From a bacterium (lineage in GTDB: Bacteria; Sysuimicrobiota; Sysuimicrobiia; Sysuimicrobiales; Humicultoraceae): a stretch of DNA of 64,000 bases. The stretch spans positions 11,608 through 75,607 of the forward strand of contig JAVHLI010000004.1 of assembly GCA_031082185.1 (NCBI GenBank). The letters run 5' to 3'. Every line of letters begins with the position of its first letter. Position 1 is the stretch's first letter. The notes under the pieces are model-generated. The model was not told the origin of the DNA, made no database searches, and saw only the letters and a program-made list of their open reading frames with translations. The position numbers were made by a program, and so were the translations under genes. Below, in pieces: positions 1-29,474 of the stretch.

Positions 1-735
1 TCGTAGAAACCCTCCACCAGGACGCGGCCCGTGACCGGATCCTTCAGGGAAGCCAGCGCCCAGGCCATTCGGTTCCCGGCGCCCTCCACGACAGCGCCCA
101 GCGACGAGTGAAGATCCCGGCTCGTGGCGTGCAGCTCCAGGTCGAGGTAGCATATCCCCTTGATGCCGGTGGTGATCTGCAGCCGCTCCTTGAGGTCGCG
201 CTGCCCGGATTCCCAGATGCAGGCGTCGGAGCGCAGCGCGTCCGCGTGCGCCTTCACGTATGAACCGAAGTTGGGCGATCCGATCTCCTCCTCGCCCTCG
301 ACCAGGAACTTCACCCGGCAGGGCAGCCGGCCGTGGGCGGCCTTGAGTGCCCGCACCGCGGCCAGGCGTGTGACCAAGTCTCCCTTGTTATCGGCGACGC
401 CGCGCGCGTAGAGACGGCCGTCCCGGACCACCGGCTCGAACGGCGGCGAAGTCCATTCGCCGAGCGGATCCGCGGGCTGAACATCGTAGTGGTCGTAGAA
501 CAGAAGCGTGCGCTCTCCCTCGCCGGGGAACTCGGCGATCACGATCGGGGCGGCGTCTCCCTCCTGATGGAGAGCGACTGTGGCGCCGGCCTCCTCGAAG
601 GCGCCGCGGACCAACGCCGCGCATGCGGCTACCCCCTCGCCGGTGGCAGCCACGCTCGGTTGGCGGAGCATCGTGCGCAGGACCTCCAACGCGGGATCGG
701 TGTGCTCTCTGGCGATGTCTCGCAGCGACGGCATC
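1..735 (-). CDS. M20 family amidohydrolase (ArgE/DapE/ACY1-like), paralog A. The N-terminus is complete; the C-terminus is cut by the window start.
   Basis: My own translation of the minus strand from ATG at 735: MPSLRDIAREH...TLLFYDHYDVQP...GVADNKGDL...FLVEGEEEIGS. It is roughly 55% identical to the downstream paralog. An RBS (GGAGG) sits 5 nt upstream at 740-744. This ORF is not in the supplied track because no stop codon falls inside the window. Confidence 0.8.
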
Positions 736-2100: not shown

Positions 2101-2160
2101 AGGAGTTACAGGAAGAGTTCTGGCCGTCCCCGGCGAACCCTTCTCAATCGTGAAGCAGAC

Positions 2161-7720: not shown

Positions 7721-8188
7721 TCATTGTGCGCGACCCGGGGCCCTGGAACCCAACAGGTCTCGTAGCGACTCGCGCAGCAGGCAGGCCATGTCCATGGCCT
7801 GTAAACATGTCGCCTCGACGAAGGCCAGGCGCCGTGCTTCGTCTCGTGAGTGAACGACGCGCCCGCGCAAAGCGGCCATCCGCAGGCCGAGCGGGGCATC
7901 GTTGAGCAGTACCGCATCAATCGGCAGGCCCGCGGCCGCCTCCAGGCGGCATGCGAGATCGAGCTGCAGGGGCAACATGCCCGCGTCCGGGCAGCGCTCC
8001 GGATCCAGGAAGACGGCCACGTCAACGTCCCCAAAGGCCCGGTCCTCGACGAACGAGCCGAACACATAGGCGAAGAGGACGGCGCCTTCCGCGGCCAGGC
8101 TCTTTGCAACACGGACCAGCACGCGCTCGCGGTCAGATGCCGCAAGGTCGTGATGCTTCAGCGTACCAGTCCGCGGCTCTTCCTTCAT
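7721..8188 (-). CDS. MntA-like minimal nucleotidyltransferase (the antitoxin/AMPylase partner of HepT).
   Basis: The GS-x9-DxD motif FGSFVEDRAFGDVDVAVF is present. There is a 4-nt ATGA overlap with the upstream HEPN gene. Confidence 0.75.
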   Translation of the reverse strand: MKEEPRTGTLKHHDLAASDRERVLVRVAKSLAAEGAVLFAYVFGSFVEDRAFGDVDVAVFLDPERCPDAGMLPLQLDLACRLEAAAGLPIDAVLLNDAPLGLRMAALRGRVVHSRDEARRLAFVEATCLQAMDMACLLRESLRDLLGSRAPGRAQ

Positions 8189-8631
8189 GGCAACTCACCG
8201 CTTGAAGAAAGAACGTGAGCCCCGACGGCGGCCAGGAACGCCTCCAGGTCGCCCAGGTCCTGGCGCATGAGGTGATGCAACCGCCGGTCATCCACCCGGC
8301 CGTAGCCGTGGACAAGGAGGTTGCGAAGCCGCGCCAGGGCCGCAAGGCGGGTGGCCAGGGAAGCATCCACAATCCCCAGCTCCCCGAGCAACTGGAAGCA
8401 ACCGGGGTAGCTCTCTGAGACACGCCCCTGGCGGGCAACCAGATGGTTGCAGATGGTCGCCGCGGCTTCTACCACCACGGTCAGGCTGTACCGCGCGGCC
8501 CTGACCTTTTCGGCATCGGTGGAGAAGGTCTCCACGGACAGGACCGAGTAGGCGCGCAGCATCTCGCTCTCGCGCCGGATATCGGCGCTGCGGCTGCGGA
8601 TCATGTCCAGGTTGATGGGCAGAGAGGTCAT
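8185..8631 (-). CDS. HepT-like HEPN (DUF86) RNase toxin.
   Basis: The Rx4HxY motif is present as RLRNLLVHGY. I set the start to Met28 (MTSLPINLD...) so it does not run into the divergent gene. Confidence 0.75.
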   Translation of the reverse strand: MTSLPINLDMIRSRSADIRRESEMLRAYSVLSVETFSTDAEKVRAARYSLTVVVEAAATICNHLVARQGRVSESYPGCFQLLGELGIVDASLATRLAALARLRNLLVHGYGRVDDRRLHHLMRQDLGDLEAFLAAVGAHVLSSSGELP

Positions 8632-8763
8632 GCTATCCCCCCGCGAAGATCTGCTGCTGCCTATCCTAGCAGATGGCTTCCGCCCTGCAGAGGGGAGGCA
8701 CCGAGTTACCACATGGCGATCTCCGGCAGGATTCGTGGCGCAGGACGCCTAAAGCGCCGTTGC

Positions 8764-13540: not shown

Positions 13541-14455
13541 ATGCCCGCCATCGAACACCTCGCCGACGACCTGGTCCTGATCGACACCGGCTACTGCCGT
13601 ACTCCCGCAGCGATCGGCGTCTACCTGCTGCTGGGCGAGCGACCGGCCCTGGTCGAGACCGGGCCCGCCTCGACGGTCGAGGCGGTGCTGGAAGGGGTGC
13701 GGGCCGCCGGGCTCGACCCGAGCGACCTGCGGGCGGTCGCGGTCACGCACATCCACCTGGACCACGCGGGCGCGGCAGGGGCGCTGTTACGGCGACTGCC
13801 CCATCTGGACGTGTACGTGCACCCCATCGGCGCGCCGCACCTGGTGGATCCCTCGCGCCTGATCACCAGCGCCCGCCGGCTCTACGGGGATGATCTCGAC
13901 ACGCTCCTGGGCGAACCCGAGCCGGTCCCCGCCGATCGGGTACAGCTCCTTGAGGACGGGGCCCAGATCATGCTTGGATCACGGCGGCTGCGGTCTCTCG
14001 ATACGCCCGGACACGCCCGGCACCACCTGGCGCTCCTGGACGAGTCCTCGGGCGACCTCTTCACCGGAGACGCGGCAGGCATCTGCCTGACGGGATCGCG
14101 CTACGTGCTCCCGCCCACGCCGCCGCCGGAGCTGGACGTACCGACCTGGAACGCGACCCTCGCCCGGCTGCGCGCGCTGCGGCCGCGGCGCCTGCTGCTC
14201 ACGCACTTCGGACCGCATACCTGGTGCGATGAGTTGCTGGCCCAGATGCAGGCGCGCCTTCCCGCTGCTGTGGAGCTCGTGCGTTCGGCGCTGGACTCCG
14301 GCCTGGGCGAGGAGGCGATCGTAGAGCGGCTGCGGGCTACGGGCGCCGGCGCGGCCGCAGCGGACGGACCGAATGCGGCGGGCCGTATGGAAGTCGTCAT
14401 GCCTTCGCGGTTGAACGCGTTAGGGCTGATCCGGTACATCAAGACGGCAGCCTGA
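13541..14455 (+). CDS. Metallo-beta-lactamase fold hydrolase.
   Basis: The HxHxDH motif appears as VTHIHLDHAG. I trimmed the start to MPAIEHL. The stop overlaps the XPB ATG by 1 nt. Confidence 0.8.
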   Translation: MPAIEHLADDLVLIDTGYCRTPAAIGVYLLLGERPALVETGPASTVEAVLEGVRAAGLDPSDLRAVAVTHIHLDHAGAAGALLRRLPHLDVYVHPIGAPHLVDPSRLITSARRLYGDDLDTLLGEPEPVPADRVQLLEDGAQIMLGSRRLRSLDTPGHARHHLALLDESSGDLFTGDAAGICLTGSRYVLPPTPPPELDVPTWNATLARLRALRPRRLLLTHFGPHTWCDELLAQMQARLPAAVELVRSALDSGLGEEAIVERLRATGAGAAAADGPNAAGRMEVVMPSRLNALGLIRYIKTAA

Positions 14456-15933
14456 TGGCGAACCGCGCGGGCCGGCTCCGGTTCGACCGCGGCTCCCTCC
14501 GCCTCGACCTCCCCAAGGCCACCCGGGTGCCGCCCTACCTGATCTGGGACCGGCGCGTGCAGGCGTGGCGCACCGAGGCGGTGCACTACCTGCAGGTTCG
14601 GGAGGACGCGCCGGCCTACCACCTGGACCTATCCGACGAGGCGCCGCGGTTCTTCGACTGCCCGCCGCTGATCCCATCGCTTCCGGCGCTACGGCCCGAC
14701 CAGCAGGCCGCGGTGGAGGCATGGGAGCAAGCTGGAGGCCGGGGGGTCGTGGTCAAGCCCACGGGTACGGGCAAGACCGAGATCGCGCTGGCCCTGATCA
14801 CCCGCCACCGCGTCTCGGCGTTGATCGTCGTGCCGCTGCGCGACCTGATGTACCAGTGGCAGCGCCGGATCAAGCAGGGGTTGGGCTTCGACGCTGGGGT
14901 CCTGGGCGACGGGCGTCACGAGGTTTGGCCGATCACGGTCACCACCTACGACAGCGCCTACATCCACATGAAGGAGATCGGCAACCGGTACCGTCTCATA
15001 GTCTACGACGAGGCGCACCACCTCCCGGGGGTCACCTTCCGCGAGAGCGCGCTGGACTGCCTGGCGCCGATGCGGCTGGGGCTCACCGCTACCCCCCGCC
15101 GTGCCGACGGCCTGGACCGGTTGCTCGACGAGCTGATCGGCCCGATCGTGTACGAAGAACAGATCGCCGACGCAAGGGGGAAGACCCTGGCCGGCTACAG
15201 CATCATCCGCGTGCCGATCGCCCTGACCGAGGACGAGCAGGCCGAGTTCGACGGGCTCTCGCGGCGGATCCGCGCGTACGTCGCCCGCGGCCGTCGGGAA
15301 GGCGCTGCAGGCAGGGCAGCGCGGGACGGGGGCGCCGGAGGCGGGGCTGCGGGCGAGCGAGCCCCGGCGTTCGACTGGACGCATGACCTGGCCAGGCGGT
15401 CGCGCACCGATCCCGAGGCCAAGGCGATCCTGCGCGCCTACCGGAGGAAGTTGACGCTCATCCATCGCTCCGCCGAGAAGTTGCGCGTGGTCGAAGACGT
15501 CCTGCGCCTGCACCCTGCGGATCAGTGCGTGATCTTCACCGCCTCCAACCGAATGGCCCTGGACGTCTCGGCGCGCTTCCTCATCCCGGCGCTCACCGCC
15601 CACTCGGACAAGAAGGAACGGAACGCCGTGCTCGACGCGTTCGCTCGGGGCACGCTGCGTGCGCTCGTCGCCTGTGAGGTCCTCAACGAGGGATGGGACG
15701 CGCCCGCGGTGAAGGTCGGCGTGGTGCTCGGGGGCGAGAAGGGCGCCAAGGAGGCCGTGCAGCGCCTGGGGCGGCTGCTGCGCAGGTCGGGCGACCGCTC
15801 CGCGCGCCTCTACGAGGTCGTGGTGCAGGAGAGCCCCGAGATCACCAGGGCACGGCGCCGGAGCCGGACGGATGCTTACCAAACAGCAACGCGTCTATCG
15901 GTGGATCAGGCCCGGCAGCTCGATCTCTTCTGA
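14455..15933 (+). CDS. XPB/RAD25-like SF2 DNA helicase.
   Basis: Walker A is PTGTGKTEIA, the DEAH box is VYDEAHHLPG, and C-terminal helicase motifs are present. Confidence 0.8.
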   Translation: MANRAGRLRFDRGSLRLDLPKATRVPPYLIWDRRVQAWRTEAVHYLQVREDAPAYHLDLSDEAPRFFDCPPLIPSLPALRPDQQAAVEAWEQAGGRGVVVKPTGTGKTEIALALITRHRVSALIVVPLRDLMYQWQRRIKQGLGFDAGVLGDGRHEVWPITVTTYDSAYIHMKEIGNRYRLIVYDEAHHLPGVTFRESALDCLAPMRLGLTATPRRADGLDRLLDELIGPIVYEEQIADARGKTLAGYSIIRVPIALTEDEQAEFDGLSRRIRAYVARGRREGAAGRAARDGGAGGGAAGERAPAFDWTHDLARRSRTDPEAKAILRAYRRKLTLIHRSAEKLRVVEDVLRLHPADQCVIFTASNRMALDVSARFLIPALTAHSDKKERNAVLDAFARGTLRALVACEVLNEGWDAPAVKVGVVLGGEKGAKEAVQRLGRLLRRSGDRSARLYEVVVQESPEITRARRRSRTDAYQTATRLSVDQARQLDLF

Positions 15934-17062
15934 TCGGCTGGACGACGAGGACCTGCCGCATCTGGCGCGGGCCATCGCCGTCTACCGGCGGTTGGTCGGC
16001 GGCCGGCGGGGACGCGTGCGGGATGCGGCGCGGGGCGCGCTCGGCGGGATCCAGCCTGATCGGGTCGAGGGGATCATCAAGCTCCTGGACGATGTGGCCA
16101 CCTACGAGTGGCCCCGCGGCTCGCGGCAGGCCGAAGTGCGGGTGCGGGTGTTCGAGACGGCGGCCCGGAATCACCCGGTACTCGAACGCGACCATGCCCG
16201 GGACCTGCTGGCGGCAGGGCTCAACCCGGCGCCCCACCGCCCCGAGGATGCCGTGCCCCTCCTCTACGCCGACTACCCGGAGTTCCACCGGATGAGCGCC
16301 TTCCCCCTCGACTACGCCGCCGGCGACCTCCGTGCCGACTACGATCTCGCCCAGGCCCAGGCGCTGCTCTACGACGCGGTCCGGATCACGGTTGAAGCCC
16401 GGCGCGACTTCAGGCACATCGTCCAGTACGCGCGTCTCTCGCGCCTGCTGCACCGGGGCGAGCGGGTGCGCGGCGGAGCATACCGGTTGGTCTTCGACGG
16501 ACCCAACTCGATCCTCCGGTACACCCACGCCTACGGGGTTGACTTCGCGAAGTTCCTGGCAGCGCTCGTCCAGGCCCGAGGCTGGACCCTGACCGCCGAG
16601 GTCGTGATGCGCAAGGGGTGGCGGCCGGTTCTGTTCGCGCTCTCGGACGCCGACGGCCTGCGCTCGCGGGTGCCTGTCCCGGCGCTGTTCGACTCGCGCC
16701 TGGAGGAGACTTTCGCGCGCAAGTTCGGTCCCGAGCGCGACGGCTGGCGACTCGGCCGGGAAGCGCTCATCCTCGAGGCGGGCGAGGCGCTGGTGGTGCC
16801 GGACTTCGTCTTCACCCACGAGGATGGAACCGAGGTGGCCTTGGAGATCGTCGGGTACTGGACCCCACAGTACCTCAAGACGAAGCTCGATAAGCTCGCC
16901 GCGGTGCGGGGGCCGAACCTGATCGTAGCCGTCCGGAAGGCGATGGCCGTGGCGGCTGGGAGTCTTCCGGCGACGGTGTTGCCGTTCTCGAGCGGGATCC
17001 TGCTGCGGGACCTCATGCCCCGGCTGGAGGCGTTCCGGCCAACCCGAAGGAGGGGTGGATGA
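15872..17062 (+). CDS. DUF790 / Bax1-like nuclease partner of XPB.
   Basis: 396 aa, lying immediately 3' of the XPB gene (a 62-nt overlap if the ATG at 15872 is used). This is the canonical XPB-Bax1 genomic pairing. Confidence 0.6.
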   Translation: MLTKQQRVYRWIRPGSSISSDRLDDEDLPHLARAIAVYRRLVGGRRGRVRDAARGALGGIQPDRVEGIIKLLDDVATYEWPRGSRQAEVRVRVFETAARNHPVLERDHARDLLAAGLNPAPHRPEDAVPLLYADYPEFHRMSAFPLDYAAGDLRADYDLAQAQALLYDAVRITVEARRDFRHIVQYARLSRLLHRGERVRGGAYRLVFDGPNSILRYTHAYGVDFAKFLAALVQARGWTLTAEVVMRKGWRPVLFALSDADGLRSRVPVPALFDSRLEETFARKFGPERDGWRLGREALILEAGEALVVPDFVFTHEDGTEVALEIVGYWTPQYLKTKLDKLAAVRGPNLIVAVRKAMAVAAGSLPATVLPFSSGILLRDLMPRLEAFRPTRRRGG

Positions 17063-18006
17063 CCGTGGCACCACGGGTCACCGTCGTGGGCAGCCTCAAC
17101 ACCGACCTTGTGGTCAGGGCGCCGAAGCTGCCCGAGCGCGGCGAGACGGTGATGGACGGCTCGTTCGCCGTCTTCTCGGGAGGCAAGGGTGCCAACCAGG
17201 CCGTGGCCGCAGCCAGGCTGGGAGCGAGCGTGGTAATGGTCGGCCGCGTTGGGGACGACCCCTTCGGCGCGCAGATGCGTGCCGGCCTGGAGCAGGAAGG
17301 CATTGATGCTGCGCACGTGCGCGCAACCAAGGGCACCGCATCGGGTGTCGCGCTCATCACAGTAGATCTCGCCGGTCACAACACCATCGTCGTGGCCTCA
17401 GGGGCCAACATGCGCCTGACGATCGCGGACGTGGATGCCGCTGCTGAGGTAATCGCAGAGAGCCAGGTCCTGCTGCTGCAGTTCGAGGTGCCGACGGAGG
17501 TGGTGGCACACGCTGCGGCCCTGGCAAAGCGCAGCGGCTGCCGTGTCGTGCTGGACCCGGCGCCCGCACCGGCGGACGGGTCGCTGCCCGAAGGCCTGTA
17601 CCGGAGTCTTTTCGTAATAAACCCCAACGAGGTTGAAGCCCGGGCGCTCACCGGAATCGCGGTGGCCAACGATCAGGGCGCGGCCGCTGCTGCAGACCGC
17701 CTCTTGGAGCTAGGATGCCAGGCAGCGGTCATCAAGCGCGGCGTGCAGGGTGCCTTCTTGGCGGTGGACGCGACGCGTGAAGCAGTACCGGGGATTCCAG
17801 TCAAGGCCGTGGACTCAACCGCCGCGGGTGATGCGTTCGCCGGAGCGCTGGCGGTGGCGCTGGCCGAAGGCAGGAGCCTAGCCGAGGCGGTCCGGTTCGC
17901 GAACGCCGCAGGCGCGATGTCGGTGACCCGGATGGGTGCGCAGCCCTCGATGCCACGGCGGGAGGAGTTGTTGGAGTTCGCCCGGTCACGCGGGCTTGGG
18001 CTCTGA
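17059..18006 (+). CDS. rbsK: Ribokinase.
   Basis: VVGSLNTDLV, GGKGANQA and a C-terminal DSTAAGDAF are present. Confidence 0.85.
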   Translation: MTVAPRVTVVGSLNTDLVVRAPKLPERGETVMDGSFAVFSGGKGANQAVAAARLGASVVMVGRVGDDPFGAQMRAGLEQEGIDAAHVRATKGTASGVALITVDLAGHNTIVVASGANMRLTIADVDAAAEVIAESQVLLLQFEVPTEVVAHAAALAKRSGCRVVLDPAPAPADGSLPEGLYRSLFVINPNEVEARALTGIAVANDQGAAAAADRLLELGCQAAVIKRGVQGAFLAVDATREAVPGIPVKAVDSTAAGDAFAGALAVALAEGRSLAEAVRFANAAGAMSVTRMGAQPSMPRREELLEFARSRGLGL

Positions 18007-18504
18007 GCCGCCCCCGGCCGCGTGCGCGCGCCGGGCCTCGCTGACCATCCGCCGCGCGTCCTCTGCCCCGGCCCAGCCGTGGATCTCCACCGGCTTCTGC
18101 TCGAGCGTCTTGTAGACCGTAAAGAAGTGCTGCACCTCCTTGAGGAAGTGCGGTGGCACGTGCTCCAGTTCGGTCACGCCGTCGAAGCGCGGATCGCCCA
18201 CGGGCACGGCCAGCACCTTCTGGTCGTGCCCCTTCTCGTCGTGCATGTCCAGCACGCCGATGGGGCGCACCTCCACCAGGCAGCCAGGGAACGTGGGCTC
18301 GTAGGTGAAGATCAGCACGTCCAGGTGGTCGCCGTCGTCGGCCAGGGTGTCTGTGATGAACCCGTAGTCGGCCGGGTAGTGCAGCGGCGAGTAGAGCACC
18401 CGGTCGAGCCGGATCCCGCCGCGGATAGGGTCCAGTTCGTACTTGTTTCGGCTGCCCCGCGGCACCTCGACGAAGGCCAGCACGGTCACAGCCCGTTCGG
18501 TCAT
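17986..18504 (-). CDS. ppa: Inorganic pyrophosphatase.
   Basis: Starts at Met116 of ORF 17986..18849 (MTERAVTVLAFVEVPRGSRNKYE...). GGAGGGAG lies 6 nt upstream. The extended N-terminal 115 codons are a GC artefact. Confidence 0.9.
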   Translation of the reverse strand: MTERAVTVLAFVEVPRGSRNKYELDPIRGGIRLDRVLYSPLHYPADYGFITDTLADDGDHLDVLIFTYEPTFPGCLVEVRPIGVLDMHDEKGHDQKVLAVPVGDPRFDGVTELEHVPPHFLKEVQHFFTVYKTLEQKPVEIHGWAGAEDARRMVSEARRAHAAGGGSEPKPA

Positions 18505-18935
18505 CCCCATCTCCCTCCGTCGGGCCCGGTCGCCCCCGCGTCGCGATCCGTCAGGTCCCGGACCAGCGCGCGGATGCGGCCGGCCAGGTCGTCGCGGACC
18601 GTGCGGTAGAACGTGAGATCGCGGCCGGCCGGATTCGGCAGCGGCCAGTGCAGGCTTCGCGCGCCCGGCACCAACGGGCACGCCTCCTCGGCGCACAGGC
18701 CCACCACCAGTTCGACGTCGGGCCCCAGGGCCGCCTGCAGCGGCTTGGGCATGTGGTCGCTGATGTCCACGCCGATCTCGCGCATGACCGTCACGGCCTC
18801 CTCGCGCACGCGCTCCCCGGGGTCCGTGCCCGCGGACCCGGCCCGCCAACCCGCCGGCGTCAGGGCGTTGAACAACCCCTCCGCCATCTGCGAGCGGGCG
18901 GAGTTGTGCACTCAGAGAAACAGGACGCGTGGCAT
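18501..18935 (-). CDS. Thioredoxin-coupled ArsC / LMW-PTP family arsenate reductase with an in-frame TGA at the catalytic Cys codon. It is a candidate selenoprotein or a pseudogene.
   Basis: ATG at 18935 is preceded by GAGGAGGG. The reading is MPRVLFL-TGA(18914..18912)-VHNSARSQMAEG...LCAEEACP, which aligns to the ArsC/LMW-PTP CX5R P-loop and to the Cys82/Cys89 pair. The ORF track only calls the portion after the TGA (GTG start at 18911). Confidence 0.5.
18870..18908 (-). promoter_or_regulatory. GC-rich hairpin immediately 3' of the in-frame UGA (SECIS-like position).
   Basis: On the mRNA: CACAACUCCGCC-(11-nt loop)-GGCGGAGGGGUUG. It starts 4 nt after the UGA. Confidence 0.3.
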
Positions 18936-19036
18936 GACACCCTCCTCACCGCCCCGGAGCAGTCCTGGCCCACCGTGGGCGCCGCCAGGCCCGCGACCAC
19001 GCCCGCGGCCGCCTGTACCGTGTTGGCGGGGCCGCA

Positions 19037-19693
19037 TCACACGTTCAGCTCCCGCAGCTCGCCGGTCACCATGTAGATGACCCGCTCACCGATGTTGGTG
19101 ATATGGTCGGCGGCGCGCTCCAGGTTCTGCGCCACCAGCAGCAGCTCCAGCGCCCGCGGGATGGTCCGGGGATCGCTGAGCATGTACGTCAGCAGCTCTC
19201 TGAAGACCTGGCTGCGCAGGGCGTCCACCTCGTCATCTCGCTTCGCCATGGCCTCGGCCAGGGCCGTATCTCTTCGCAGGTACGCGTCCATGGCCTCTCG
19301 GAGCATCTGCTGCACGAGTTCCTCCATGCGCGGGATGTCAATGAGCGGTTTGAGGTGCGGCTGGCCGGCCAGCCGCTTCACCGACTTGGAGATGCCCTCG
19401 GCGTGGTCGGCCAGCCGCTCCAGGTCGATGGTAATGACGAAGGCGGCCGCGATGGTCCGCAGGTCTGACGCCATGGGCTGCTGCCGGGCCAACAGGCGCA
19501 TGCAGCGGTCCTCCAGCTCCAGGTGCAGCGCGTCGATCCGGTCGTCATCCCGGACGATCCGCTCGGCCCAGTCGGCGTCCAGCGTCCGCAGCGCCTCCAC
19601 CGACGCGTGGATCGCCTCCCCAGCCATCGTCGCCATGCGGACGACGTCGGCCTGGAGCCCCTCCAACTCCCTCAGGAACAGCTCGCGAGTCAA
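19037..19693 (-). CDS. phoU: Phosphate transport system regulator PhoU.
   Basis: 218 aa with two PhoU repeats. Confidence 0.9.
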   Translation of the reverse strand: MTRELFLRELEGLQADVVRMATMAGEAIHASVEALRTLDADWAERIVRDDDRIDALHLELEDRCMRLLARQQPMASDLRTIAAAFVITIDLERLADHAEGISKSVKRLAGQPHLKPLIDIPRMEELVQQMLREAMDAYLRRDTALAEAMAKRDDEVDALRSQVFRELLTYMLSDPRTIPRALELLLVAQNLERAADHITNIGERVIYMVTGELRELNV

Positions 19694-19759
19694 CCTCGGC
19701 TCCCTCCCCCCGATGTTCTGGCCACGCCTGGGAACTCCTGGCAGGGTGCCGGCCCGGGC

Positions 19760-20593
19760 TCACCCGAACCGGCCGGTAATGTAGTCCTCGGTCCGGCGAT
19801 CACCAGGCCGCGTGAAGATCTGGTCCGTGGCACCAACCTCGACCAGCTCGCCGTCCAACAGGAACCCGGTCACATCCGAGACCCGGGCGGCCTGCTGCAT
19901 GTTGTGGGTCACGATGACAATGGTGAGCTGCCGGGCCAGCTCGCGGGCCAGCTCCTCGATGCGCAGCGTGGCTGCCGGGTCCAGGGCCGAGGCCGGCTCG
20001 TCCATCAGCAGTACCTCTGGCGAGACGGCGAGCGCGCGGGCGATGCACAGCCGCTGCTGCTGGCCGCCCGAGAGGCTGGTGCCGGGCCGCCCCAGGCGGT
20101 CCTTCACCTCATCCCACAAGGCCGCGGCGCGCAGGCTGCGCTCCACTGTCTCGTCCAGCACACGCCGGTCCCGCTCGCCGGCCAGCCGCAGCCCGGCCGC
20201 GGCGTTGTCGTAGATGCTCATGGTGGGGAAGGGGTTGGGCTTCTGGAACACCATGCCGACGCGGCGGCGGACCCGGACCGGGTCGACGCCCGGCGCGTAG
20301 ATATCGACGCCGTCCATCAGTACCCTCCCGCTGGAGCGCGCGCCGGGCACCAGCTCGTGCATGCGGTTCAGGCAGCGCAGGAAGGTGGACTTACCGCATC
20401 CCGACGGCCCGATGATGGCCGTCACCCGGCGAGGGGCGATGGTCAGGGAGACGCCACGCAGAACGTGGTGGCGGTCGAACCAGGCGTGGACGCCCTGTGC
20501 CTCGATCCCGGCGGCGTGGTCGATCAAGATCCCGGCGTCCGCCGTCACGGCGACCCCGGCCTGCATGGCGTCTGGCATCGGACCCTCCATCAT
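19760..20593 (-). CDS. pstB: Phosphate ABC transporter ATPase.
   Basis: Walker [10 protein letters not shown], plus LSGGQQQRL and the Walker B. Confidence 0.9.
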
Positions 20594-20609
20594 CGCAGCA
20601 TTCGCTCCG

Positions 20610-21455
20610 TTACCGAAGTTTCACATGGCGGGCCGCCACCGCCCGGGCGGCGATGTTGACGCTCAGCACAATGGTCATCAGGACCAGGGCGCCGGCCCAC
20701 GCCTGCCGGTGCCAGTCCTCGAAGGGCGAGACGGCGTAGGCGAAGATCTGCAGGGGCAGGGCGGCGATCGGTTGCAGCAGGTCCCAGTTCCAGAACCGGT
20801 TCCCGAACGCGGTGAAGAGCAACGGCGCGGTCTCGCCCGCGATGCGGGCCAGCCCCACCATGATGCCGGTCACGATCCCGCCGGCGGCGGTGGGCAACAC
20901 CACCCGAAGCAGCGTTCGCCACTGGGGGATACCCAGCGCCAGTGACGCCTCGCGAACGCTCTGGGGGACCAGCCGCACTATCTCCTCGGTGGTCCGCATC
21001 ACCGTCGGGATCAGCATGATCCCCAGCGCTACGCCGCCGGAGGCGGCGCTGAAATGGCGCAGGGGCAGCACCAGAATGGTGTAGGCAAACAGGCCCATCA
21101 CGATGCTGGGCACCCCGTTCATCACGTCGGCCATCAGCCGCACGGCACCGGCGAGCCGGCTGTTGGGGCATTCCGCCAGGAACGTCCCGCCCAGCACGCC
21201 GACCGGCATCCCGAGCAGCGCGGCCAGGCCCACCAGCACCAGCGTGCCGGAGATGGCGTTGGCCATCCCGCCGCCGGGCTCGCCGGCGGCCCCGGGCAGG
21301 TGGGTGAAGAATTCCAGGTTCAGGGCGCCCAGGCCGGTGCGGGCCAGGAAGAAGAGGATGAGGAACAGCGGGACCAGCGCGGCCACGGTGCACAGGAATG
21401 TCACCCCGGCCATCAGGCGGTCGGTCCAGCGGCGGCGCAGATAGGAGCGGGCCAT
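20610..21455 (-). CDS. pstA: Phosphate ABC transporter permease PstA.
   Basis: 281 aa, TM-rich, and positioned within the pst operon. Confidence 0.9.
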
Positions 21456-21458
21456 CGG

Positions 21459-22388
21459 CTACTCCCGAATGAGGCCCGGGCCCCGCGCCACGCGGGCCAC
21501 CAGCAGGCGGGCCAGGATGTTGACCGTCAGCGTGACCAGGAAGAGGACGAGCCCGGCGTAGATGATCGCGGCCACGTACAGGTCGTCGGTGGCCTCGGCG
21601 AACTCGTTGGCGATCACCGCCGCGATGGTGTAGCCCGGCGCGAGAAGCGACGCCCTGATCTGGGGCACGTTGCCGATGACCATGGTGACCGCCATGGTCT
21701 CGCCCAAGGCCCGGGCCAGAGCCAGGAAGATCGCGCCCACGATCCCTGAGCGGGCATACGGGATGACCGCGGTCCGGGTGGTCTCCCAGACGGTAGCTCC
21801 CAGGGAGAGCGCGGCCTCACGCTGCGAAGTCGGCACCGCCCGCATTACCTCGGTGCTGGCGGCGATGATGAAGGGCACGACCATGATCGCCAGGATCAGC
21901 CCGGCGGCCAGCATCCCAATGCCCAGCGGCGGCCCCTCGAACAGCGGCAGGAAGCCCAACGTCGCCTTCAGCGGCGGCGAGAGCGTCGTCCGCACCCAGG
22001 GGACCAGCACAAAGATCCCCCACAGCCCGTAGACCACGCTGGGGATGGCGGCCAGCAGATCGAGCAGGAATCCGACCGGCCGGCGCAGCCAGCCCGGGGC
22101 CAGCTCGGACAGGAAGATGGCGACCCCCAGACCCAGCGGCACGGCCAGGGCCAGCGCGACGGCCGAGGACACCAGCGTGCCGTAGACGAAGGGCAGGGCG
22201 CCGAAGTCGCCGGCGACAGGGTCCCAGGTCGAGGTGGCGAAGAACGCCGGGCCGAACTTCCGGATCGCCGGCCAGGCACCGACGGTCATCGCGGCCAGCA
22301 TGGCGGCCATGATTACCGGCACCACGCCGGCCATCGCTGCCAGCAGCCGCGCGAACAGCCGGTCGCCCATATGCGCGACGTGCCGCAC
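21459..22388 (-). CDS. pstC: Phosphate ABC transporter permease PstC.
   Basis: 309 aa, TM-rich, and positioned within the pst operon. Confidence 0.9.
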   Translation of the reverse strand: MRHVAHMGDRLFARLLAAMAGVVPVIMAAMLAAMTVGAWPAIRKFGPAFFATSTWDPVAGDFGALPFVYGTLVSSAVALALAVPLGLGVAIFLSELAPGWLRRPVGFLLDLLAAIPSVVYGLWGIFVLVPWVRTTLSPPLKATLGFLPLFEGPPLGIGMLAAGLILAIMVVPFIIAASTEVMRAVPTSQREAALSLGATVWETTRTAVIPYARSGIVGAIFLALARALGETMAVTMVIGNVPQIRASLLAPGYTIAAVIANEFAEATDDLYVAAIIYAGLVLFLVTLTVNILARLLVARVARGPGLIRE

Positions 22389-22396
22389 GGGAGCCG

Positions 22397-23455
22397 TCAG
22401 GGCAGCAACGCCTTCCCCTGCGCGGTGACCGTCCGCAGCGTGCCCTCGACGCGCGCCACCAGGCTCTTGGGCAGCTGCGCGTAGTGCAGCGGCGGCGCGT
22501 ACTTCTGGCCGTCATGGACCGCCCACCGCAGGAAGTCCACCAGGGCCTTGCCCTTGACCGGGTCGGGCTGCTCGCCGTAGATCAGGATCCACGTAAACCC
22601 GGCGATGGGGTAGACGTCCCGGCCCTCGGGATCGGTGAAGAAGATCCGGTAGTCCTCGGGGATTGCCCGCAGCGCGCCATCCATCGCCCGGGTGGTGCTG
22701 GACAGCAAGGGCCGGATGAACTGACCCGCGCGGTTGCGCACATTGCCAACGGGCATCCGGTTGGTCAGCACGTAGGCCAGCTCCACGTAGCCCAGCGCGT
22801 TCGGCATCTGCCGCACGAGGCCGGCGACACCCTCGTTGCCCTTGCCGCCGATCCCGACCGGCCAGTTCACCGACGTACCCTCGCCTACCTTCCTCCGCCA
22901 GTCGGGGCTGACCTTGCTCAGGTAGTTCACCCAGATGGCCGTGGTCCCGGACCCGTCCGAGCGGCGCACCACGATGATGTCGGCGGCCGGCAGCTTCGCC
23001 TCGGGGTTGTCCTTGAGCAGCCGGGGATCGTTCCACTTCGTGATCTTGCCCAGGAAGATGTCGGCCAGGACGCCGGGGGCAAAGTTGAGCCCGGTCCCCA
23101 CACCGGGAATGTTGTACATCGGTACCACCGCGCCGGCCACCATGGGGATGTGCAGCGGGCGGCCGCCGGCCTGGCGAATCTGCGCGTCGGTCATCGGGCC
23201 GTCGGTGGCGCCGAAGTCCACGGTCTTCGCGATGAATTGGCGGATCCCGCCGCCCGAGCCGATGGATTGATAGTTGATGCGCACGCCACGCTCGGCATCG
23301 TAGACCTGCGACCACTTGGAGTAGAGCGGGAACGGAAATGTCGCCCCTGCACCGGTGAGCGTCACCGGCTGCTGGGCGGGGGTGGTCCCCGCCGCGCCGA
23401 GCACCACGGCGGCGCTCAGGGCAAGCGCAGCGAACCACGATAGCGGATTCAACAC
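22397..23455 (-). CDS. pstS: Phosphate-binding protein PstS.
   Basis: A signal peptide followed by TLTGAGATFPFPLYSKW. GTG start; AAGGAGG sits upstream. Confidence 0.9.
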   Translation of the reverse strand: MLNPLSWFAALALSAAVVLGAAGTTPAQQPVTLTGAGATFPFPLYSKWSQVYDAERGVRINYQSIGSGGGIRQFIAKTVDFGATDGPMTDAQIRQAGGRPLHIPMVAGAVVPMYNIPGVGTGLNFAPGVLADIFLGKITKWNDPRLLKDNPEAKLPAADIIVVRRSDGSGTTAIWVNYLSKVSPDWRRKVGEGTSVNWPVGIGGKGNEGVAGLVRQMPNALGYVELAYVLTNRMPVGNVRNRAGQFIRPLLSSTTRAMDGALRAIPEDYRIFFTDPEGRDVYPIAGFTWILIYGEQPDPVKGKALVDFLRWAVHDGQKYAPPLHYAQLPKSLVARVEGTLRTVTAQGKALLP

Positions 23456-23588: not shown

Positions 23589-24536
23589 TTACTTGAGGTC
23601 CAGGCGGTATCCGATGCCGCGCACGGCCACGAGCCGCACGCCGCCGCGGGGCTCGACTTTCTTGCGCAGCCAGCCGATGTGAGTATCGAGGGTACGAGAG
23701 TTGCCGAAGTAGTCCTCGCCCCAGACTTCGTGCAGGAGGCGCTCGCGCCGGACCACTTTGCCCTGGTGCCGCAGCAGGAGGTGCAGCAGGCCGAACTCCT
23801 TCGCGGTGAGGGGCACGGGCACGCCGGCCACGGCGGCCTCGTGGCGTTCGGGGTCTACGGCCAGACGGCCGGCCACCAGCGTTAGTTCGACGCCCGCCTG
23901 GACGACAAGGGTCTCCAGGACATTGGCGATGTCCTCGCAGCGGTCGGTGCCGGTCTCAAGCATCTCGCAGATGTCTTTCCACTTGATGATGTCCCTGGCG
24001 CTGCGCCGGCCCGAGAACAGCGCCTCGAGGGCGTCCCGCAGCACGTCGTCGCCCTGGTTCTCCAGGCGGTGCAGCGTCCGTGTGTGGGAGAAGACCTCTC
24101 GCCCGCGGCGCACCTCGCGAATCGCCTGTCTGATCTCCTGCGCCGACCGGAGCATGATCTGTCCCATCTCGCGCGCGGACGGGATCGCCCGCCGGATGCG
24201 ATAGATCGCCAGCCGTGCCGCCGCCGCCTCGATGGCGTCGAGCACGTCGTCGAGAAGCCCGGTCAGGCTCTTTAGCGTGTCACGGTCGCCAGAGGGAATG
24301 CCGGCGGCCGAGAGGGATTCGAAGAGATCGCGCGCAATGGCATCGCCTTTGTGTTCTAGATCCCGAATCGCCTGCCAGGCCTGATCGGCAGGCGTACGGC
24401 TCTCCAGCGCCCCGACGAGCGCCTCGGCGGCATCGAGGATGGCGTGCGTCATCTCCTCGAGAAGGTCGAACTCCCTCTCACGCGGAAGCGGTGCGGCGCG
24501 AGGCGATGGCACCGCGTCGGGTGAAGGATCAACCAT
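23589..24536 (-). CDS. DUF47 (PhoU-like, COG1392) domain fused to an OmpR/PhoB-type winged-helix DNA-binding domain; a one-component regulator.
   Basis: The N-terminal ~200 aa match the DUF47 pattern (EFDLLEEMTHAILDAAEAL...HRLENQGDDVLRDALEALF...KWKDICEMLETGTDRCEDIAN). The C-terminal ~100 aa are a trans_reg_C wHTH (LTAKEFGLLHLLLRHQGKVVRRERLLHEVWG...GIGYRLD). The start is set at Met26. Confidence 0.65.
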   Translation of the reverse strand: MVDPSPDAVPSPRAAPLPREREFDLLEEMTHAILDAAEALVGALESRTPADQAWQAIRDLEHKGDAIARDLFESLSAAGIPSGDRDTLKSLTGLLDDVLDAIEAAAARLAIYRIRRAIPSAREMGQIMLRSAQEIRQAIREVRRGREVFSHTRTLHRLENQGDDVLRDALEALFSGRRSARDIIKWKDICEMLETGTDRCEDIANVLETLVVQAGVELTLVAGRLAVDPERHEAAVAGVPVPLTAKEFGLLHLLLRHQGKVVRRERLLHEVWGEDYFGNSRTLDTHIGWLRKKVEPRGGVRLVAVRGIGYRLDLK

Positions 24537-24666
24537 ACGCACCGAGCATACCACGTCAGGCGCCACCGGGCGCACCGAGCGCTTCGGGGCAGGCGGAGCA
24601 CGCCGAAGCACGGGCGGGCCCGGCGCATATGCGCCGGGCCCGCCACGATCATGTATGTCGCCCGCG

Positions 24667-26437: not shown

Positions 26438-27760
26438 CTAAAAAGCCGTAAGGTAACTGTCAACTTCCCACGGGTGTACGCGGGTGATGTACTCCCGCCA
26501 CTCCAGTCGCTTGGCCCGTACAAGATGATCTACGATGTGGCTGCCGAGCGTCTCAGTGATGAGCTCGTCGGCCAGGAGTTCCCCCACCGCCTCGTCGAGG
26601 TTGCGGGGAAGCACCCGGATGCCCAACTGATCCAGCTCGTCTTCCGTCATCGCGTAGAGGTTCCGGTTGAGCGGCGGGCCGGCGTCCAGCCCTCTTGTGA
26701 TGCCGTCGAGGCCGGCGGCCAGCATCACCGCCATGGCCAGGTAGGGGTTGCAGGAGGGATCCGGCATGCGCAGCTCCACGCGCGTGCCGTCCCCGCGCGA
26801 CACCGGGACGCGAACCAGCGGCGACCGGTTGCGCTCGGCCCAGGCGATGTAAACCGGTGCCTCGTACCCCGGCACCAGGCGCTTGTAGGAGTTGACCAGG
26901 GGGTTGGTCACCGCGCACATGCCCCGCGCGTGGGTCAGCAGCCCAGCGACGTATTGCAGGCAGGTCGCGCTGAGCTGGTGGGTGCCCTCAGGGTCGTAGA
27001 AGGCGTTCTTCCCCTCGCGGTACAGCGACTGGTGGGTGTGCATCCCCGACCCCGCGATGCCGGTAATGGGCTTCGGCATGAAGGTCGCGTGAAGCCCGTG
27101 GCGCCTGGCGATCGTCCGCACCACCAGGCGGAACGTGGCGATGTTGTCGGCCGCGCGCAGCACGTCGGCGTACTTGAAGTCAATCTCGTGCTGGCCGTTG
27201 GCCACCTCGTGGTGCCCGGCCTCGACCTCGAAGCCCATGGCTGAGAGCGCGGTCACCATGTCTGCCCGCGCCTCTTCACCCTTGTCCACGGGCGCCATGT
27301 CGAAGTAGCCGGCCCGGTCGTGCGTCGTCAGCTTGGGCTGGCCGTCGGCGTCGGTGGGAAAAAGGAAGAACTCGCACTCCGGCCCGGCCATCATGGTGAA
27401 CCCACTGCGCGCGGCAGCGGCGACGACGCGACGCAGCACGGAGCGGGGATCGCCCGCGAACGGCTCCCGCTCGGCGGTATAGACGTCGCAAATCAGGCGC
27501 GCCGTGGCCCCCTCCCGGTTCTTCCACGGAAAGAGCGCGAAAGTCTCGCGATCCGGTATGAGATACATGTCCGACTCCTCTATGCGCACGAAGCCCTCGA
27601 TAGAGGAACCGTCAAACAGGATCTCGTTGTCGAGCGCCCTCTCGAGCTGCTCCACCGGGATCTCCACGTTCTTTAGGGTACCCAGGATGTCCGTGAACTG
27701 CAGGCGGACAAACCTCACACCCCACGCGTGGGCCTGCTCAAGCACCTGTTCTTTCGTCAT
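26438..27760 (-). CDS. glnA: Glutamine synthetase type I.
   Basis: Starts at Met42 (MTKEQVLEQAHAWGVRFVRLQFTDILG) with an AGGAGGAG RBS. GS signatures are present throughout. Confidence 0.9.
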   Translation of the reverse strand: MTKEQVLEQAHAWGVRFVRLQFTDILGTLKNVEIPVEQLERALDNEILFDGSSIEGFVRIEESDMYLIPDRETFALFPWKNREGATARLICDVYTAEREPFAGDPRSVLRRVVAAAARSGFTMMAGPECEFFLFPTDADGQPKLTTHDRAGYFDMAPVDKGEEARADMVTALSAMGFEVEAGHHEVANGQHEIDFKYADVLRAADNIATFRLVVRTIARRHGLHATFMPKPITGIAGSGMHTHQSLYREGKNAFYDPEGTHQLSATCLQYVAGLLTHARGMCAVTNPLVNSYKRLVPGYEAPVYIAWAERNRSPLVRVPVSRGDGTRVELRMPDPSCNPYLAMAVMLAAGLDGITRGLDAGPPLNRNLYAMTEDELDQLGIRVLPRNLDEAVGELLADELITETLGSHIVDHLVRAKRLEWREYITRVHPWEVDSYLTAF

Positions 27761-29474
27761 CACCGCTCCTCCTAAGTGCCGTGGTCTGAACCTCGAACCC
27801 CATCTCGGCCGCCCGTGCCACCAGGTACTCGATGTTCTCGGTCTTGGTGCGGTCCCCCAGGCTGATGCGCTGGGTGCACCCATCGAGCGCGATGATCACA
27901 GTCTCTGCCAGGCAGGCAGGCACAAGGCCCGGACCGTAGCCCAGGTTGATATTCCAACTAGGATTCCCGGGAAGGCGCACAACTCCTCCTGGGATGACCT
28001 CGGCTCCCGGCATTGCCTTCACCGAATCGTCCACATCATAGGGCCTTCCCAGGTCTATGATGAGGCAGCCGTCCCTCACGTGTTCGGGGAAGATGACCGG
28101 GCGCGGCGAGGAGGTGGCGGTGAAGATGGCGTCGGCCTCTCGCAGCAACCCGTAGTCGGTCGTCGCCTCGATGCGCGCGCCGGGGTGGCGGCGCGCCAGC
28201 AACTCCCGCGACCGCTCCAGCCGTGACGCATCGGTCCCCAGCATGACCAGGCGCCCCACGTGCTCCACCACCTGGCGGCAGATTCCGAAGCCCACCACGC
28301 CGTTCGCCCCGACCACCGCGATCGTGGCGTCTGCCGGATCAATGCCGCGGGAGCGAAGCCGGTCGAGGATCACGGGCACCGCCATCTTCACGGTGCCGGC
28401 GGTATAGGCGCCGCCGTTGGTGACCGCGATCCCGGACCTTGCCGCCACCTCGACGCCCTTGTTCCCGACAACGGACCAGTAGGCGCCCAGCCCCAGAACC
28501 GTGGCGCCCAGATTCTCGGCAAGGTGGGCGGCCTGCACCGCCCGCCGCACCGCCAGACGGGGATGCGCTCGGATCTGGTCGGGCAGCAGCGGCACCCCAA
28601 TCAGGTAGACGCGGGCCCGCCGACCGTCGGCGGTGATGACCGGGTGGATATCGTCAACCTTCATGGGCCGCACGAAGCGCGCGACCCGGCGCACCAAGGC
28701 GTCGGAGATGATCCCGCGCCGGCGCAGGGGCATCAGCCAGCGGAACCTGCCGGCCTCCCAGTTGTCGTCAACGGTCATCGGGTGGACCAGGAATGCGCAC
28801 ACGGCATCGTCGCCCAACAGCAGCGGCAGCGGAAGGCGTTCGCCCATCCTGGGCTCGGTACCGTCGGCTATCCGCGCCAGGTGTTCCTTGTGGTTCCACA
28901 GGCTCACTATCGCAAGCGCCAGACCCAGCGCCAGGTACGGCGCACGGCCGCCCAGCGCCCACAGGCCCGCGGGCAGGCTGGCCGTGGCAAGCACCGTCGC
29001 CAGCGAGAGATAGCCCCAGCGCCGCCCCGCGATCCTCGGCACTCCCAGCGTCACCAACGCCACCACCGCGGGGATCGCCAGCGCCGGCCAGGGCACCGCG
29101 CCCAGGGCGCCCAGGCCGAGAAGCGCGCCCGCGGTTACGACAACGCCCTTCACCCGCACCGCTGCCGGCGGCGCGAGAAACCAGAAGGGCGAGTAGGCGT
29201 GGCCCGCTACAACCGCGGCCGCGGAGGCGGCCAGGGTCCAGTCGCCGCCGCCCAGCAACCGGGCGGGGACAACCGCGAGCCCTCCTTTGAGCAGATCAAG
29301 CGCGGCGGCCAGCGCGAGGGTATGGGCTCCGGCCGCGGCGGCCACCGTCCCCAGGCCGAGGTTGTGCGCGGAGTAGCGGCGCAGATCCACACCGCGCAGG
29401 AGCCGGCCCACGGCGTATCCGGTGGGAAGGCCTCCCAGAGCGAAGGCGAGGACGGTGGCTACAATGCTCAGCAC
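27738..29474 (-). CDS. plsY: Fusion protein: glycerol-3-phosphate acyltransferase PlsY (N-terminal, about 200 aa, multi-TM) plus an acyl-ACP reductase (AAR)-like Rossmann domain (C-terminal, about 350 aa).
   Basis: PlsY end motif: HKEHLARIADGTEPRMG. The C-terminal domain aligns to cyanobacterial AAR: VVGANGVVGFGICRQV, GGAYTAGTV, and a conserved Cys in LVPACLAET (compare AAR FACFAEA). Confidence 0.7.
   Translation of the reverse strand: MLSIVATVLAFALGGLPTGYAVGRLLRGVDLRRYSAHNLGLGTVAAAAGAHTLALAAALDLLKGGLAVVPARLLGGGDWTLAASAAAVVAGHAYSPFWFLAPPAAVRVKGVVVTAGALLGLGALGAVPWPALAIPAVVALVTLGVPRIAGRRWGYLSLATVLATASLPAGLWALGGRAPYLALGLALAIVSLWNHKEHLARIADGTEPRMGERLPLPLLLGDDAVCAFLVHPMTVDDNWEAGRFRWLMPLRRRGIISDALVRRVARFVRPMKVDDIHPVITADGRRARVYLIGVPLLPDQIRAHPRLAVRRAVQAAHLAENLGATVLGLGAYWSVVGNKGVEVAARSGIAVTNGGAYTAGTVKMAVPVILDRLRSRGIDPADATIAVVGANGVVGFGICRQVVEHVGRLVMLGTDASRLERSRELLARRHPGARIEATTDYGLLREADAIFTATSSPRPVIFPEHVRDGCLIIDLGRPYDVDDSVKAMPGAEVIPGGVVRLPGNPSWNINLGYGPGLVPACLAETVIIALDGCTQRISLGDRTKTENIEYLVARAAEMGFEVQTTALRRSGDDERTGA

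Follow-up and report, generated by a model that had tools for sequence, protein, structure and literature searches.

Arsenate reductases (ArsC) of the thioredoxin (Trx)-coupled type adopt the fold of the low-molecular-weight protein tyrosine phosphatases (LMW-PTPs), and they typically carry two resolving cysteines that are not typical of the phosphatases themselves. Solved structures are available for the enzymes from Staphylococcus aureus pI258 (1LJL/1JF8), Bacillus subtilis (1JL3) and Archaeoglobus fulgidus (1Y1L). The subject of this report is an ArsC-like gene on the minus strand of a 64-kb stretch of DNA (contig JAVHLI010000004.1; hereafter the window) from a metagenome-assembled genome (MAG) of the phylum Sysuimicrobiota. 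The predicted protein shares with the Trx-coupled ArsC enzymes the fold, the x5-R-S P-loop and the aligned positions of the nucleophile, the arginine and the resolving cysteines, and a similar redox relay would be expected. The gene differs from its characterized counterparts in that the codon of the nucleophile is UGA, the resolving cysteines are spaced as C-x4-C (not C-x6-C) and an asparagine occupies the position of Asp105. It also differs in its setting, which is a pst-phoU-ppa context and not an ars operon.

Selenocysteine (Sec) in place of a catalytic cysteine has been described in other proteins named arsenate reductase (UxxS) or arsenate reductase-like (UxxC). These published families are assigned to COG1393, TIGR00014 (UxxS) and NF041106 (UxxC). 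They resemble the window gene in their nominal chemistry, in the use of Sec for the catalytic Cys and in the same logic of Sec forms with Cys homologues, but their Sec is part of a UxxS or UxxC motif and not of a phosphatase-type U-x5-R P-loop. All three models presumably represent the glutaredoxin-type ArsC/Spx fold, which we take to be unrelated to LMW-PTP. The window protein did not match TIGR00014 or NF041106 at E <= 0.001 in a scan of NCBIfam. An LMW-PTP-type ArsC containing Sec has been made before, namely B. subtilis ArsC U89 (PMC4150793). In that artificial protein, Sec was placed at the resolving Cys89 by a UAG/EF-Tu-based insertion and served only as a mass-spectrometry reporter.

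In the window, an ATG at 18933-18935 opens a frame of seven sense codons (MPRVLFL) that runs into a TGA and continues as VHNSARSQMAEG. Translated past this TGA, which is codon 8, the minus strand reads MPRVLFL-TGA-VHNSARSQMAEGLFNALTPAGW... and ends at a second TGA (18501-18503). The features of the gene are as follows.

18501..18935, minus strand: full coding sequence of the ArsC-like gene (LMW-PTP fold), 144 codons including the in-frame UGA as codon 8
18912..18914, minus strand: candidate Sec codon, an in-frame TGA at the CX5R nucleophile position, equivalent to Cys10 of pI258 ArsC
about 18940..18948, minus strand: Shine-Dalgarno-like GAGGAGG, 5-6 nt ahead of the ATG at 18933-18935
18678..18695, minus strand: codons of Cys81 (18693-18695) and Cys86 (18678-18680), counterparts of the resolving pair Cys82/Cys89 of Trx-coupled ArsC

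UGA codon 8 is probably decoded as Sec, which would serve as the nucleophile of an LMW-phosphatase-fold, ArsC-like enzyme. This reading draws on four direct observations: the conservation of the TGA, the translation of the codons upstream of it, an RNA structure linked to the UGA and the alignment of the redox residues. The original prediction had described the same frame, starting at the ATG with its ribosome-binding site, and had placed the TGA on the nucleophilic Cys of CX5R; both descriptions agree with the sequence and with the alignment to pI258 ArsC. It had also pointed out that the ORF caller missed the start of the gene. The mechanical list of open reading frames (ORFs) indeed contains only the fragment after the TGA (18501-18911, GTG start, 136 aa). 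The NCBI annotation gives a 136-aa 'arsenate reductase ArsC' (MDQ7840395.1) for the window gene and a 128-aa hypothetical protein for the gene of a close relative.

Homologue DNA was collected as 160 loci from species-representative genomes and metagenomes. An alignment of orthologues at the TGA codon had been proposed as a check on the prediction, and its outcome was favorable. The nucleophile codon is TGA in 31 other loci, nine of them from different GTDB species representatives, and TGC or TGT in 125 gene copies of more distant homologues. The TGA loci were assembled independently from MAGs and metagenomes (Sysuimicrobiota/CSP1-3, often labelled Armatimonadota). Their ORFs are intact and their protein identity falls to about 56-60%. 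They form a single clade (AE[GA]LFNA-AP-GW...). Among its members are Candidatus (Ca.) Geohabitans tengchongensis, from the phylum Ca. Sysuimicrobiota (previously CSP1-3), as well as MAGs that carry the label 'bacterium' or Armatimonadota. Of the 120 closest proteins in the database, about 115 start after the P-loop (MAEGLFNA..., MARSQ..., VHNT...) and are N-terminally truncated calls. Only P0015 and P0021 among these 120 have the intact N-terminus M-x-R-V-L-F-V-C, and both are Cys forms from within the clade.

The codons upstream of the TGA are conserved in a manner expected of coding sequence. Every TGA locus has an ATG or GTG exactly 7 codons 5' of the TGA, and in most TGA-type relatives this fixed start codon is also preceded by a purine-rich run. 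Between the start and the TGA, the V-L-F-V codons vary synonymously (H 0.9-1.8 bits), with Val encoded by GTC/GTG/GTT/GTA, Leu by CTG/CTC/TTA/TTG/CTA and Phe by TTC/TTT. The encoded peptide matches beta-strand 1 of the Cys homologues. Judged from these alignments, the seven codons before the TGA are under selection at the protein level. A separate observation concerns the codon immediately before the UGA (window 18915-18917; columns 19-21 of alignment A2, which holds the 31 TGA-type sequences). This codon is near-fixed, being GTC in 27 of 28 Val codons, and position -1 to the UGA is C in 30 of the 31 sequences. The codon that follows the UGA shows no such constraint. The near-fixed codon may reflect an effect of codon context on recoding versus termination.

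A conserved RNA structure was found downstream of the UGA (numbered with +1 as the U of UGA). RNAalifold gave a consensus of -15.8 kcal/mol for +1 to +110 in the TGA set versus 0.0 in 120 Cys homologues. Restricted to +1 to +63, it gave almost no consensus (-0.8 kcal/mol). The structure consists of two hairpins, which are also formed in the minimum free energy (MFE) fold of +1 to +100 of the window itself.

18841..18899 (+16 to +74), minus strand: long hairpin, conserved, with a variable apical region
18899-18893 with 18847-18841 (+16-22/+68-74), minus strand: helix P1, GCCCGCU with GGCGGGC
+24-25 with +65-66, minus strand: helix P1b
18886-18882 with 18859-18855 (+29-33/+56-60), minus strand: helix P1c, UGGCG with CGCCG
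18821..18838 (+77-82/+89-94), minus strand: second hairpin, P3, GGUCCG-CGGGCA-CGGACC

The pairing is supported by covariation. The pair +18/+72 is CG in 27 sequences and GC in 4 and is never broken; +24/+66 occurs as CG, GC, UG and GU; and +78/+93 occurs as CG (24), GC (3), AU (2), UG (1) and GU (1), again with none broken. These compensatory changes all fall at codon third positions. A double compensatory change in P3 (CUG/CAG in place of CCG/CGG) was also seen in L095, a 5'-truncated locus outside the alignment, and the P3 loop CGGGNA (18832-18827) is invariant across the family. Counted over the alignment, 97.2% of cells are paired versus 92.8% in shuffles (0/500) and 31-50% when the partners are slid along the sequence. 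The number of cells changed on both sides, 15, was reached in 0/500 shuffles, and a refined structure model gave 92.8% paired versus 88.8% in shuffles (0/500).

The structure has also left a mark on codon usage. In the TGA set, four-fold codons are for the most part saturated (1.3-1.8 bits), and a limited number are frozen: Val-1 (GTC 27/28), Ala5 (GCC 27/28), Arg6 (CGC 29/31), Phe14 (TTC 29/30) and, each in 31/31, Ser26 (TCC), Ala27 (GCG) and Thr29 (ACG). Variation is also low at Pro19 (CCG 28/31) and Arg23 (CGG 27/31). The residues frozen in the TGA set vary freely at synonymous sites in the Cys homologues. Frozen codons account for 7/23 conserved codons from -4 to +31 versus 1/35 further downstream (p = 0.005), and the synonymous freezing coincides with the helices and the P3 loop, with Ala5, Arg6, Pro19 and Arg23 mapping to the long hairpin. 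Both in-clade Cys forms have TCG at Ser26, which breaks the otherwise invariant P3 pair +81/+90 (2/2 broken versus 0/33; p = 0.0017), and P0015 further loses two P1 pairs as well as the pairs +24/+66 (P1b) and +77/+94. Because both in-clade Cys members break +81/+90, the RNA structure tracks the UGA and not the clade alone. As a conserved and covarying fold linked to the UGA, the region from +16 to +94 (18899-18821) was taken as a candidate Sec insertion sequence (SECIS). It is non-canonical, and SelB would presumably be involved.

The bacterial SECIS (bSECIS) has been described by a consensus model with an upper stem of 4-16 bp, a loop of 3-9 nt with a G among its two leading positions and 16-37 nt of spacing after the UGA. 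The ArsC-like fold resembles bSECIS elements (the consensus model; E. coli fdhF) in that it lies within the coding sequence 3' of the UGA, starts about 13 nt after it and is specific to UGA genes. It differs in that its conserved pairs belong to a closing helix formed over a long range (+16-22/+68-74) and to a hairpin of its own, 79 nt downstream; the conserved apical stem measures only about 3 bp. The original prediction had placed the SECIS in another structure, a hairpin that begins 4 nt after the UGA (18873..18908, minus strand; CACAACUCCGCC at 18908-18897 with GGCGGAGGGGUUG at 18885-18873). This hairpin is physically present, with an MFE of -19.6 kcal/mol, but its stability is at chance level (z = -0.47; 55/200 shuffles fold at least as well). 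It is not conserved either, as 63% of its cells are paired in A2 and 495/500 shuffles score as high. It was rejected as the SECIS, the conserved structure being the different and longer two-hairpin fold.

Other candidates were considered within the same region. A 17-nt mini-helix of 5 bp (+18-22/+30-34) is 90% paired, has at least 4/5 pairs in 30/31 TGA versus 16/120 Cys sequences and is as far from the UGA as is the hairpin in the second TGA gene described below. It was rejected as the main signal, as it lacks covariation and cannot form together with P1 and P1c, which are better supported; it may be an alternative conformer. An upper stem at +36-40/+49-53, seen when the window sequence itself is folded, was set aside as only partly conserved. 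P3-like hairpins with a CGGGNA loop did not follow other in-frame TGAs in 3.5 Mb searched on both strands. The window had no Rfam match at the gathering threshold, and a permissive scan of the region gave one chance snoRNA match.

For the protein scans, Cys was substituted at the TGA to give a 144-aa protein. It matches Pfam LMWPc (PF01451) with an E-value of 1.5e-19 and 71 bits (cut-off 23.2), residues 4-124 covering profile positions 1-143 of 144. The P-loop C-x5-R-(S/T) near the N-terminus is matched by U8-VHNSA-R14-S15, with UGA for the Cys codon. In the NCBIfam scan (E <= 0.001), the only matching models were those of LMW-PTP-type ArsC. Among solved structures, A. fulgidus ArsC 1Y1L (E 5e-22) was a best match together with S. 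aureus pI258 ArsC. In the alignment with pI258 ArsC, U8 corresponds to Cys10, R14 to Arg16, C81 to Cys82 and C86 to Cys89. The two downstream redox cysteines of the original prediction are thus in place, and they are invariant throughout alignment A1. The loop between C81 and C86 (C81-x4-C86) is two residues shorter than that of pI258 ArsC (C82-x6-C89).

The alignment of U8, C81 and C86 with Cys10, Cys82 and Cys89 of pI258 ArsC suggests a redox relay in three steps. UGA codon 8 would be recoded as Sec without termination, under the direction of the mRNA fold: a long hairpin (+16 to +74) that a long-range helix closes, and after it the +77 to +94 hairpin with its CGGGNA loop. As a putative new class of SECIS, the helix +16-22/+68-74 would enclose a 45-nt domain and set the +77 to +94 hairpin beside the mRNA entrance of the ribosome. 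In analogy to pI258 ArsC, U8 of the U-x5-R-S P-loop would attack arsenate through its selenolate. Cys81 would then resolve the adduct as an Se-S bond with release of arsenite, and Cys86 would react with Cys81 to form a C81-C86 disulfide that a Trx-type reductant could reduce. Arsenate itself is modestly favored as the substrate over other candidates.

The genomic context connects the gene to phosphate uptake.

19037..23455, minus strand: pstS-pstC-pstA-pstB-phoU, directly upstream of the ArsC-like gene on the same strand
17986..18504, minus strand: ppa (inorganic pyrophosphatase), downstream with an ATGA overlap, translationally coupled

The ArsC-like gene is the penultimate member of a co-directional series, pstS-pstC-pstA-pstB-phoU-arsC-like-ppa, and its stop TGA (18501-18503) overlaps the ATG of ppa, in agreement with the placement between phoU and ppa and the ATGA coupling described earlier. 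A PfkB kinase gene is also among its neighbors. The pst-phoU linkage is kept in most TGA-type loci. In addition, phoU lies directly upstream on the same strand in 33/123 Cys-type loci (L014-L030, L103-L155: Gemmatimonadota and others), so the association with phosphate uptake predates the switch to Sec. From this context, the ArsC-like gene is probably expressed together with the pstSCAB-phoU uptake system. Such co-expression with high-affinity phosphate uptake could act against arsenate that enters the cell as a phosphate analogue. Immediately upstream of pstS (22397-23455), on the same strand, a gene at 23589-24611 (minus strand) encodes a protein in which PhoU_div (DUF47) is joined to a DNA-binding Trans_reg_C domain at the C-terminus; for a phosphate regulator, this architecture is unusual.

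A scan for further genes that are interrupted by TGA and have coding signal on both sides revealed a second one in five of the TGA-type loci, 5-7 kb from the ArsC-like gene. Its peptide reads ...HIQVFVTPT-TGA-PHCPRAAR..., so the TGA stands at the first Cys of CPHC (U-P-H-C). With Cys at the TGA, the protein reaches 232 bits against the model TIGR02187.2, PDO_seleno_TRX (cut-off 185). TIGR02187 is listed as a UxxC selenoprotein family in a 2026 catalogue of prokaryotic selenoproteins.

L003, about 1680-2370, plus strand: PDO gene; TGA at reverse-strand position 14847
L005, 2560-3250, plus strand: PDO gene; TGA at reverse-strand position 15817
L006, 2490-3200, plus strand: PDO gene; TGA at reverse-strand position 17675
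L083, 2960-3650, plus strand: PDO gene; TGA at reverse-strand position 17175
L087, 4430-5130, plus strand: PDO gene; TGA at reverse-strand position 15729

Like the ArsC-like gene, the PDO gene has an in-frame TGA at a redox Cys and is truncated by gene callers. About 95 of the 120 closest PDO homologue clusters are exactly 150 aa long, which indicates that they end at the TGA, and public annotation gives the gene as a 150-aa 'hypothetical protein' or 'AhpF' fragment. It differs from the ArsC-like gene in its Trx fold, its UxxC motif, its membership in a catalogued family and its compact, near-canonical hairpin. This hairpin has 9 bp, is GC-rich, spans +17 to +37 (13 nt after the UGA) and has a GGC/GGA loop. 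As far as its sequences tell, the lineage carries at least one recognized selenoprotein family with an in-frame TGA. Papers on Sysuimicrobiota make no mention of selenium, and they describe fdhA as prevalent. Taken with the 31 TGA loci, the selection on the upstream codons and the Cys homologues, this gene lends strong support to the central claim of the original prediction, that the UGA at the catalytic Cys is read as Sec. A sequence GNUGGC (G27, U29, G30, G31, C32) is common to the ArsC-like gene (window 18883-18888) and the PDO genes of the five loci at the same distances from the UGA, although the helices that contain its bases differ between the two genes. The similarity may be due to chance or to a common recognition motif.

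Several observations weigh against the reading of codon 8 as Sec in an arsenate reductase. ARAGORN, Rfam and tblastn with E. coli SelA/B/D detected no selA, selB, selD or tRNA-Sec, either in the 64-kb window or in the 160 homologue loci; this negative says little because these sequences cover a small part of each genome. The sole tblastn match to SelA, SelB or SelD was an unrelated GTPase in a Lacticaseibacillus locus, and a 95-nt 'tRNA-Gly(acc)' called by ARAGORN (L100, 12159-12253) was a false positive inside a molybdopterin-oxidoreductase-like coding sequence. The PDO gene was not found in the window, and a search by accession number for it in the window's own MAG led only to a sister MAG. 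All TGA sequences belong to one clade, and part of their conservation could therefore be inherited. As for the RNA, no conserved sub-element of the fold satisfies all constraints of the bSECIS model, the apical portion that is conserved is weak and 79 nt separate the best-conserved hairpin from the UGA. Canonical bSECIS-like hairpins in the TGA set, with a mean of -11.7 kcal/mol, are no stronger than those of the Cys homologues (-17.7), and a search sequence by sequence found none in 5/31 TGA sequences. As for the protein, the curated equivalog threshold of TIGR02691 was missed (75.6 bits versus a cut-off of 174.3), and scores were likewise low for PRK13530 (78.8 versus 215) and TIGR02689 (67.2 versus 157.6). 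Scores under the ArsC equivalog cut-offs point to a distinct subfamily. The window protein has an asparagine, N101 (LPNPAG), at the position of pI258 Asp105, which is presumably the proposed general acid. Most clade members have D at this position, and N also occurs in A. fulgidus ArsC 1Y1L. Finally, Pfam annotation of about 45 window ORFs revealed no ars genes (arsR, arsB/acr3, arsA).

These points bear differently on the alternatives. The alternative that survives best accepts Sec and questions the substrate: the protein could act in phosphate signalling or metabolism, with PhoU and the pyrophosphatase, either as an LMW phosphatase (protein-Tyr/Arg) or by reducing a different oxyanion. The tight and conserved linkage to pst-phoU and ppa, the window without an ars operon, the scores far under the ArsC cut-offs and the altered spacing of C81 and C86 all speak for it. 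However, the best matches among both solved structures and NCBIfam models are arsenate reductases without exception, both resolving cysteines are conserved and the link to phosphate uptake can also be explained by arsenate entering as a phosphate analogue. On balance, a selenoprotein with such a different activity is less probable than an arsenate reductase but a serious possibility.

A role for a standard amino acid is considerably less plausible. Here, a suppressor or near-cognate tRNA would read through the UGA and insert Cys, Trp or Gly, aided by the RNA structure and independent of a Sec pathway. Structure-stimulated read-through occurs in other systems, and Sec machinery has not been demonstrated for the window's genome. 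However, TGA terminates 22 of 40 predicted window genes, where it is the commonest stop codon; the window (68% G+C) therefore uses the standard genetic code with TGA as a normal stop, and codes 4/25 were rejected on the same count. Trp or Gly as the nucleophile would inactivate the enzyme. Relatives have a TGA at the UxxC site of TIGR02187, a known selenoprotein family, and a UGA for a redox Cys that is kept as Cys in homologues is the standard signature by which selenoproteins are catalogued. Read-through of this kind is thus improbable, and decoding as Sec remains the preferred reading of codon 8.

Still less probable is termination at the UGA. The seven codons MPRVLFL would then form a leader peptide, a truncated protein would be made from a downstream start (GTG 18911 or Met17) and the RNA fold would regulate re-initiation. 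In the window, a GTG does follow the TGA immediately, the UGA is very near the start codon and the fold lies outside the canonical bSECIS criteria. However, the codon 3' of the TGA is mostly not a start codon in relatives (GCT, CAC, ATC, CGC, ACG, GCA...). Both beta-strand 1 and the nucleophile would be missing from the short product, even though the remainder of the P-loop (xxNxxRS) is strictly conserved after the TGA and the whole domain is conserved downstream of it. The upstream codons encode the x-V-L-F-V/L strand of the Cys homologues in frame with the P-loop, an arrangement at odds with a free-standing leader.

The least tenable alternative, left open in the original prediction as a very recent nonsense pseudogene or a sequencing error at 18912-18914, would make the TGA a recent inactivating change (or an assembly error) of a TGC/TGT only one base away, in line with gene callers and NCBI reading it as a stop and with no Sec machinery seen in the window, but it is excluded by the same TGA in 31 divergent, independently assembled loci with intact ORFs, by the conserved peptide and P-loop on its two sides and by the RNA structure linked to it.

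With UGA codon 8 read as Sec, the gene belongs to a kind already known, that of bacterial selenoproteins with Sec for a catalytic Cys, and the discovery is of a type that comparative genomics yields regularly. Its fold and chemistry are unusual for this class, and its candidate SECIS is atypical. The 2026 catalogue, with 119 prokaryotic selenoprotein families and subfamilies, has no PF01451, LMW-phosphatase-fold or phosphatase entry. Full-text literature searches returned no natural LMW-phosphatase-fold selenoprotein, although a prior report beyond the searchable papers is possible. A Sec-type LMW-phosphatase-fold ArsC-like gene is apparently unreported. If confirmed, it would add a new family, fold and chemistry to the prokaryotic selenoproteome, with Sec as a P-loop nucleophile and not in a thiol-disulfide motif. 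Selenium and arsenic metabolism would also gain a second natural connection, beside the Sec-containing arsenite methyltransferase that the catalogue lists. The most far-reaching proposal joins three claims: that here, for the first time in a natural selenoenzyme, Sec acts as nucleophile in a phosphatase-type P-loop (C-x5-R, with a covalent Se-As or Se-P intermediate), that its RNA fold defines a new class of bacterial SECIS, and that the family is widespread in the uncultivated phylum Sysuimicrobiota (CSP1-3) and systematically mis-annotated as truncated ArsC. Taken jointly, these three claims are put forward tentatively, with chances slightly short of even.

What could such a gene be used for? 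Homologues with Sec or Cys within one clade offer a natural comparison of how Sec and Cys serve arsenate reduction or phosphoryl transfer, and hence of the contribution of Sec. A recoding element outside the consensus bSECIS model is a useful case for studying how SelB finds its site and a test for SECIS predictors. The truncation of about 115/120 ArsC-like and about 95/120 PDO entries also means that metabolic reconstructions treat fragments as 'arsC' or miss the genes altogether. The phylum affected by this mis-annotation, Sysuimicrobiota, is widespread in soils and hot springs.

The remainder of the window is a housekeeping region with prfA-prmC, rpmE, rho, argS, glyA and rpiB among its genes; genes for Trx and Trx reductase were not found in the window. 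Two ORFs of 738 and 907 aa (778-2994 and 51790-54513, both plus strand) have coding-like G+C and no Pfam match at E <= 1e-5. A 578-aa ORF (27738-29474, minus strand) combines a PlsY-type glycerol-3-phosphate acyltransferase with a shikimate/quinate dehydrogenase-like domain, which may reflect either a gene fusion or a crude gene call that ran two genes together. At 14455-17062 (plus strand), an XPB/ERCC3-like helicase (ResIII, XPB_DRD, ERCC3_RAD25_C) is directly followed by a DUF790 protein, a pairing reminiscent of the archaeal XPB-Bax1 pair. The window also contains a toxin-antitoxin pair of a HepT-like RNase and a Pol-beta nucleotidyltransferase (7721-8712, minus strand) and a separate MazF/PemK toxin gene (56468-56803, plus strand).

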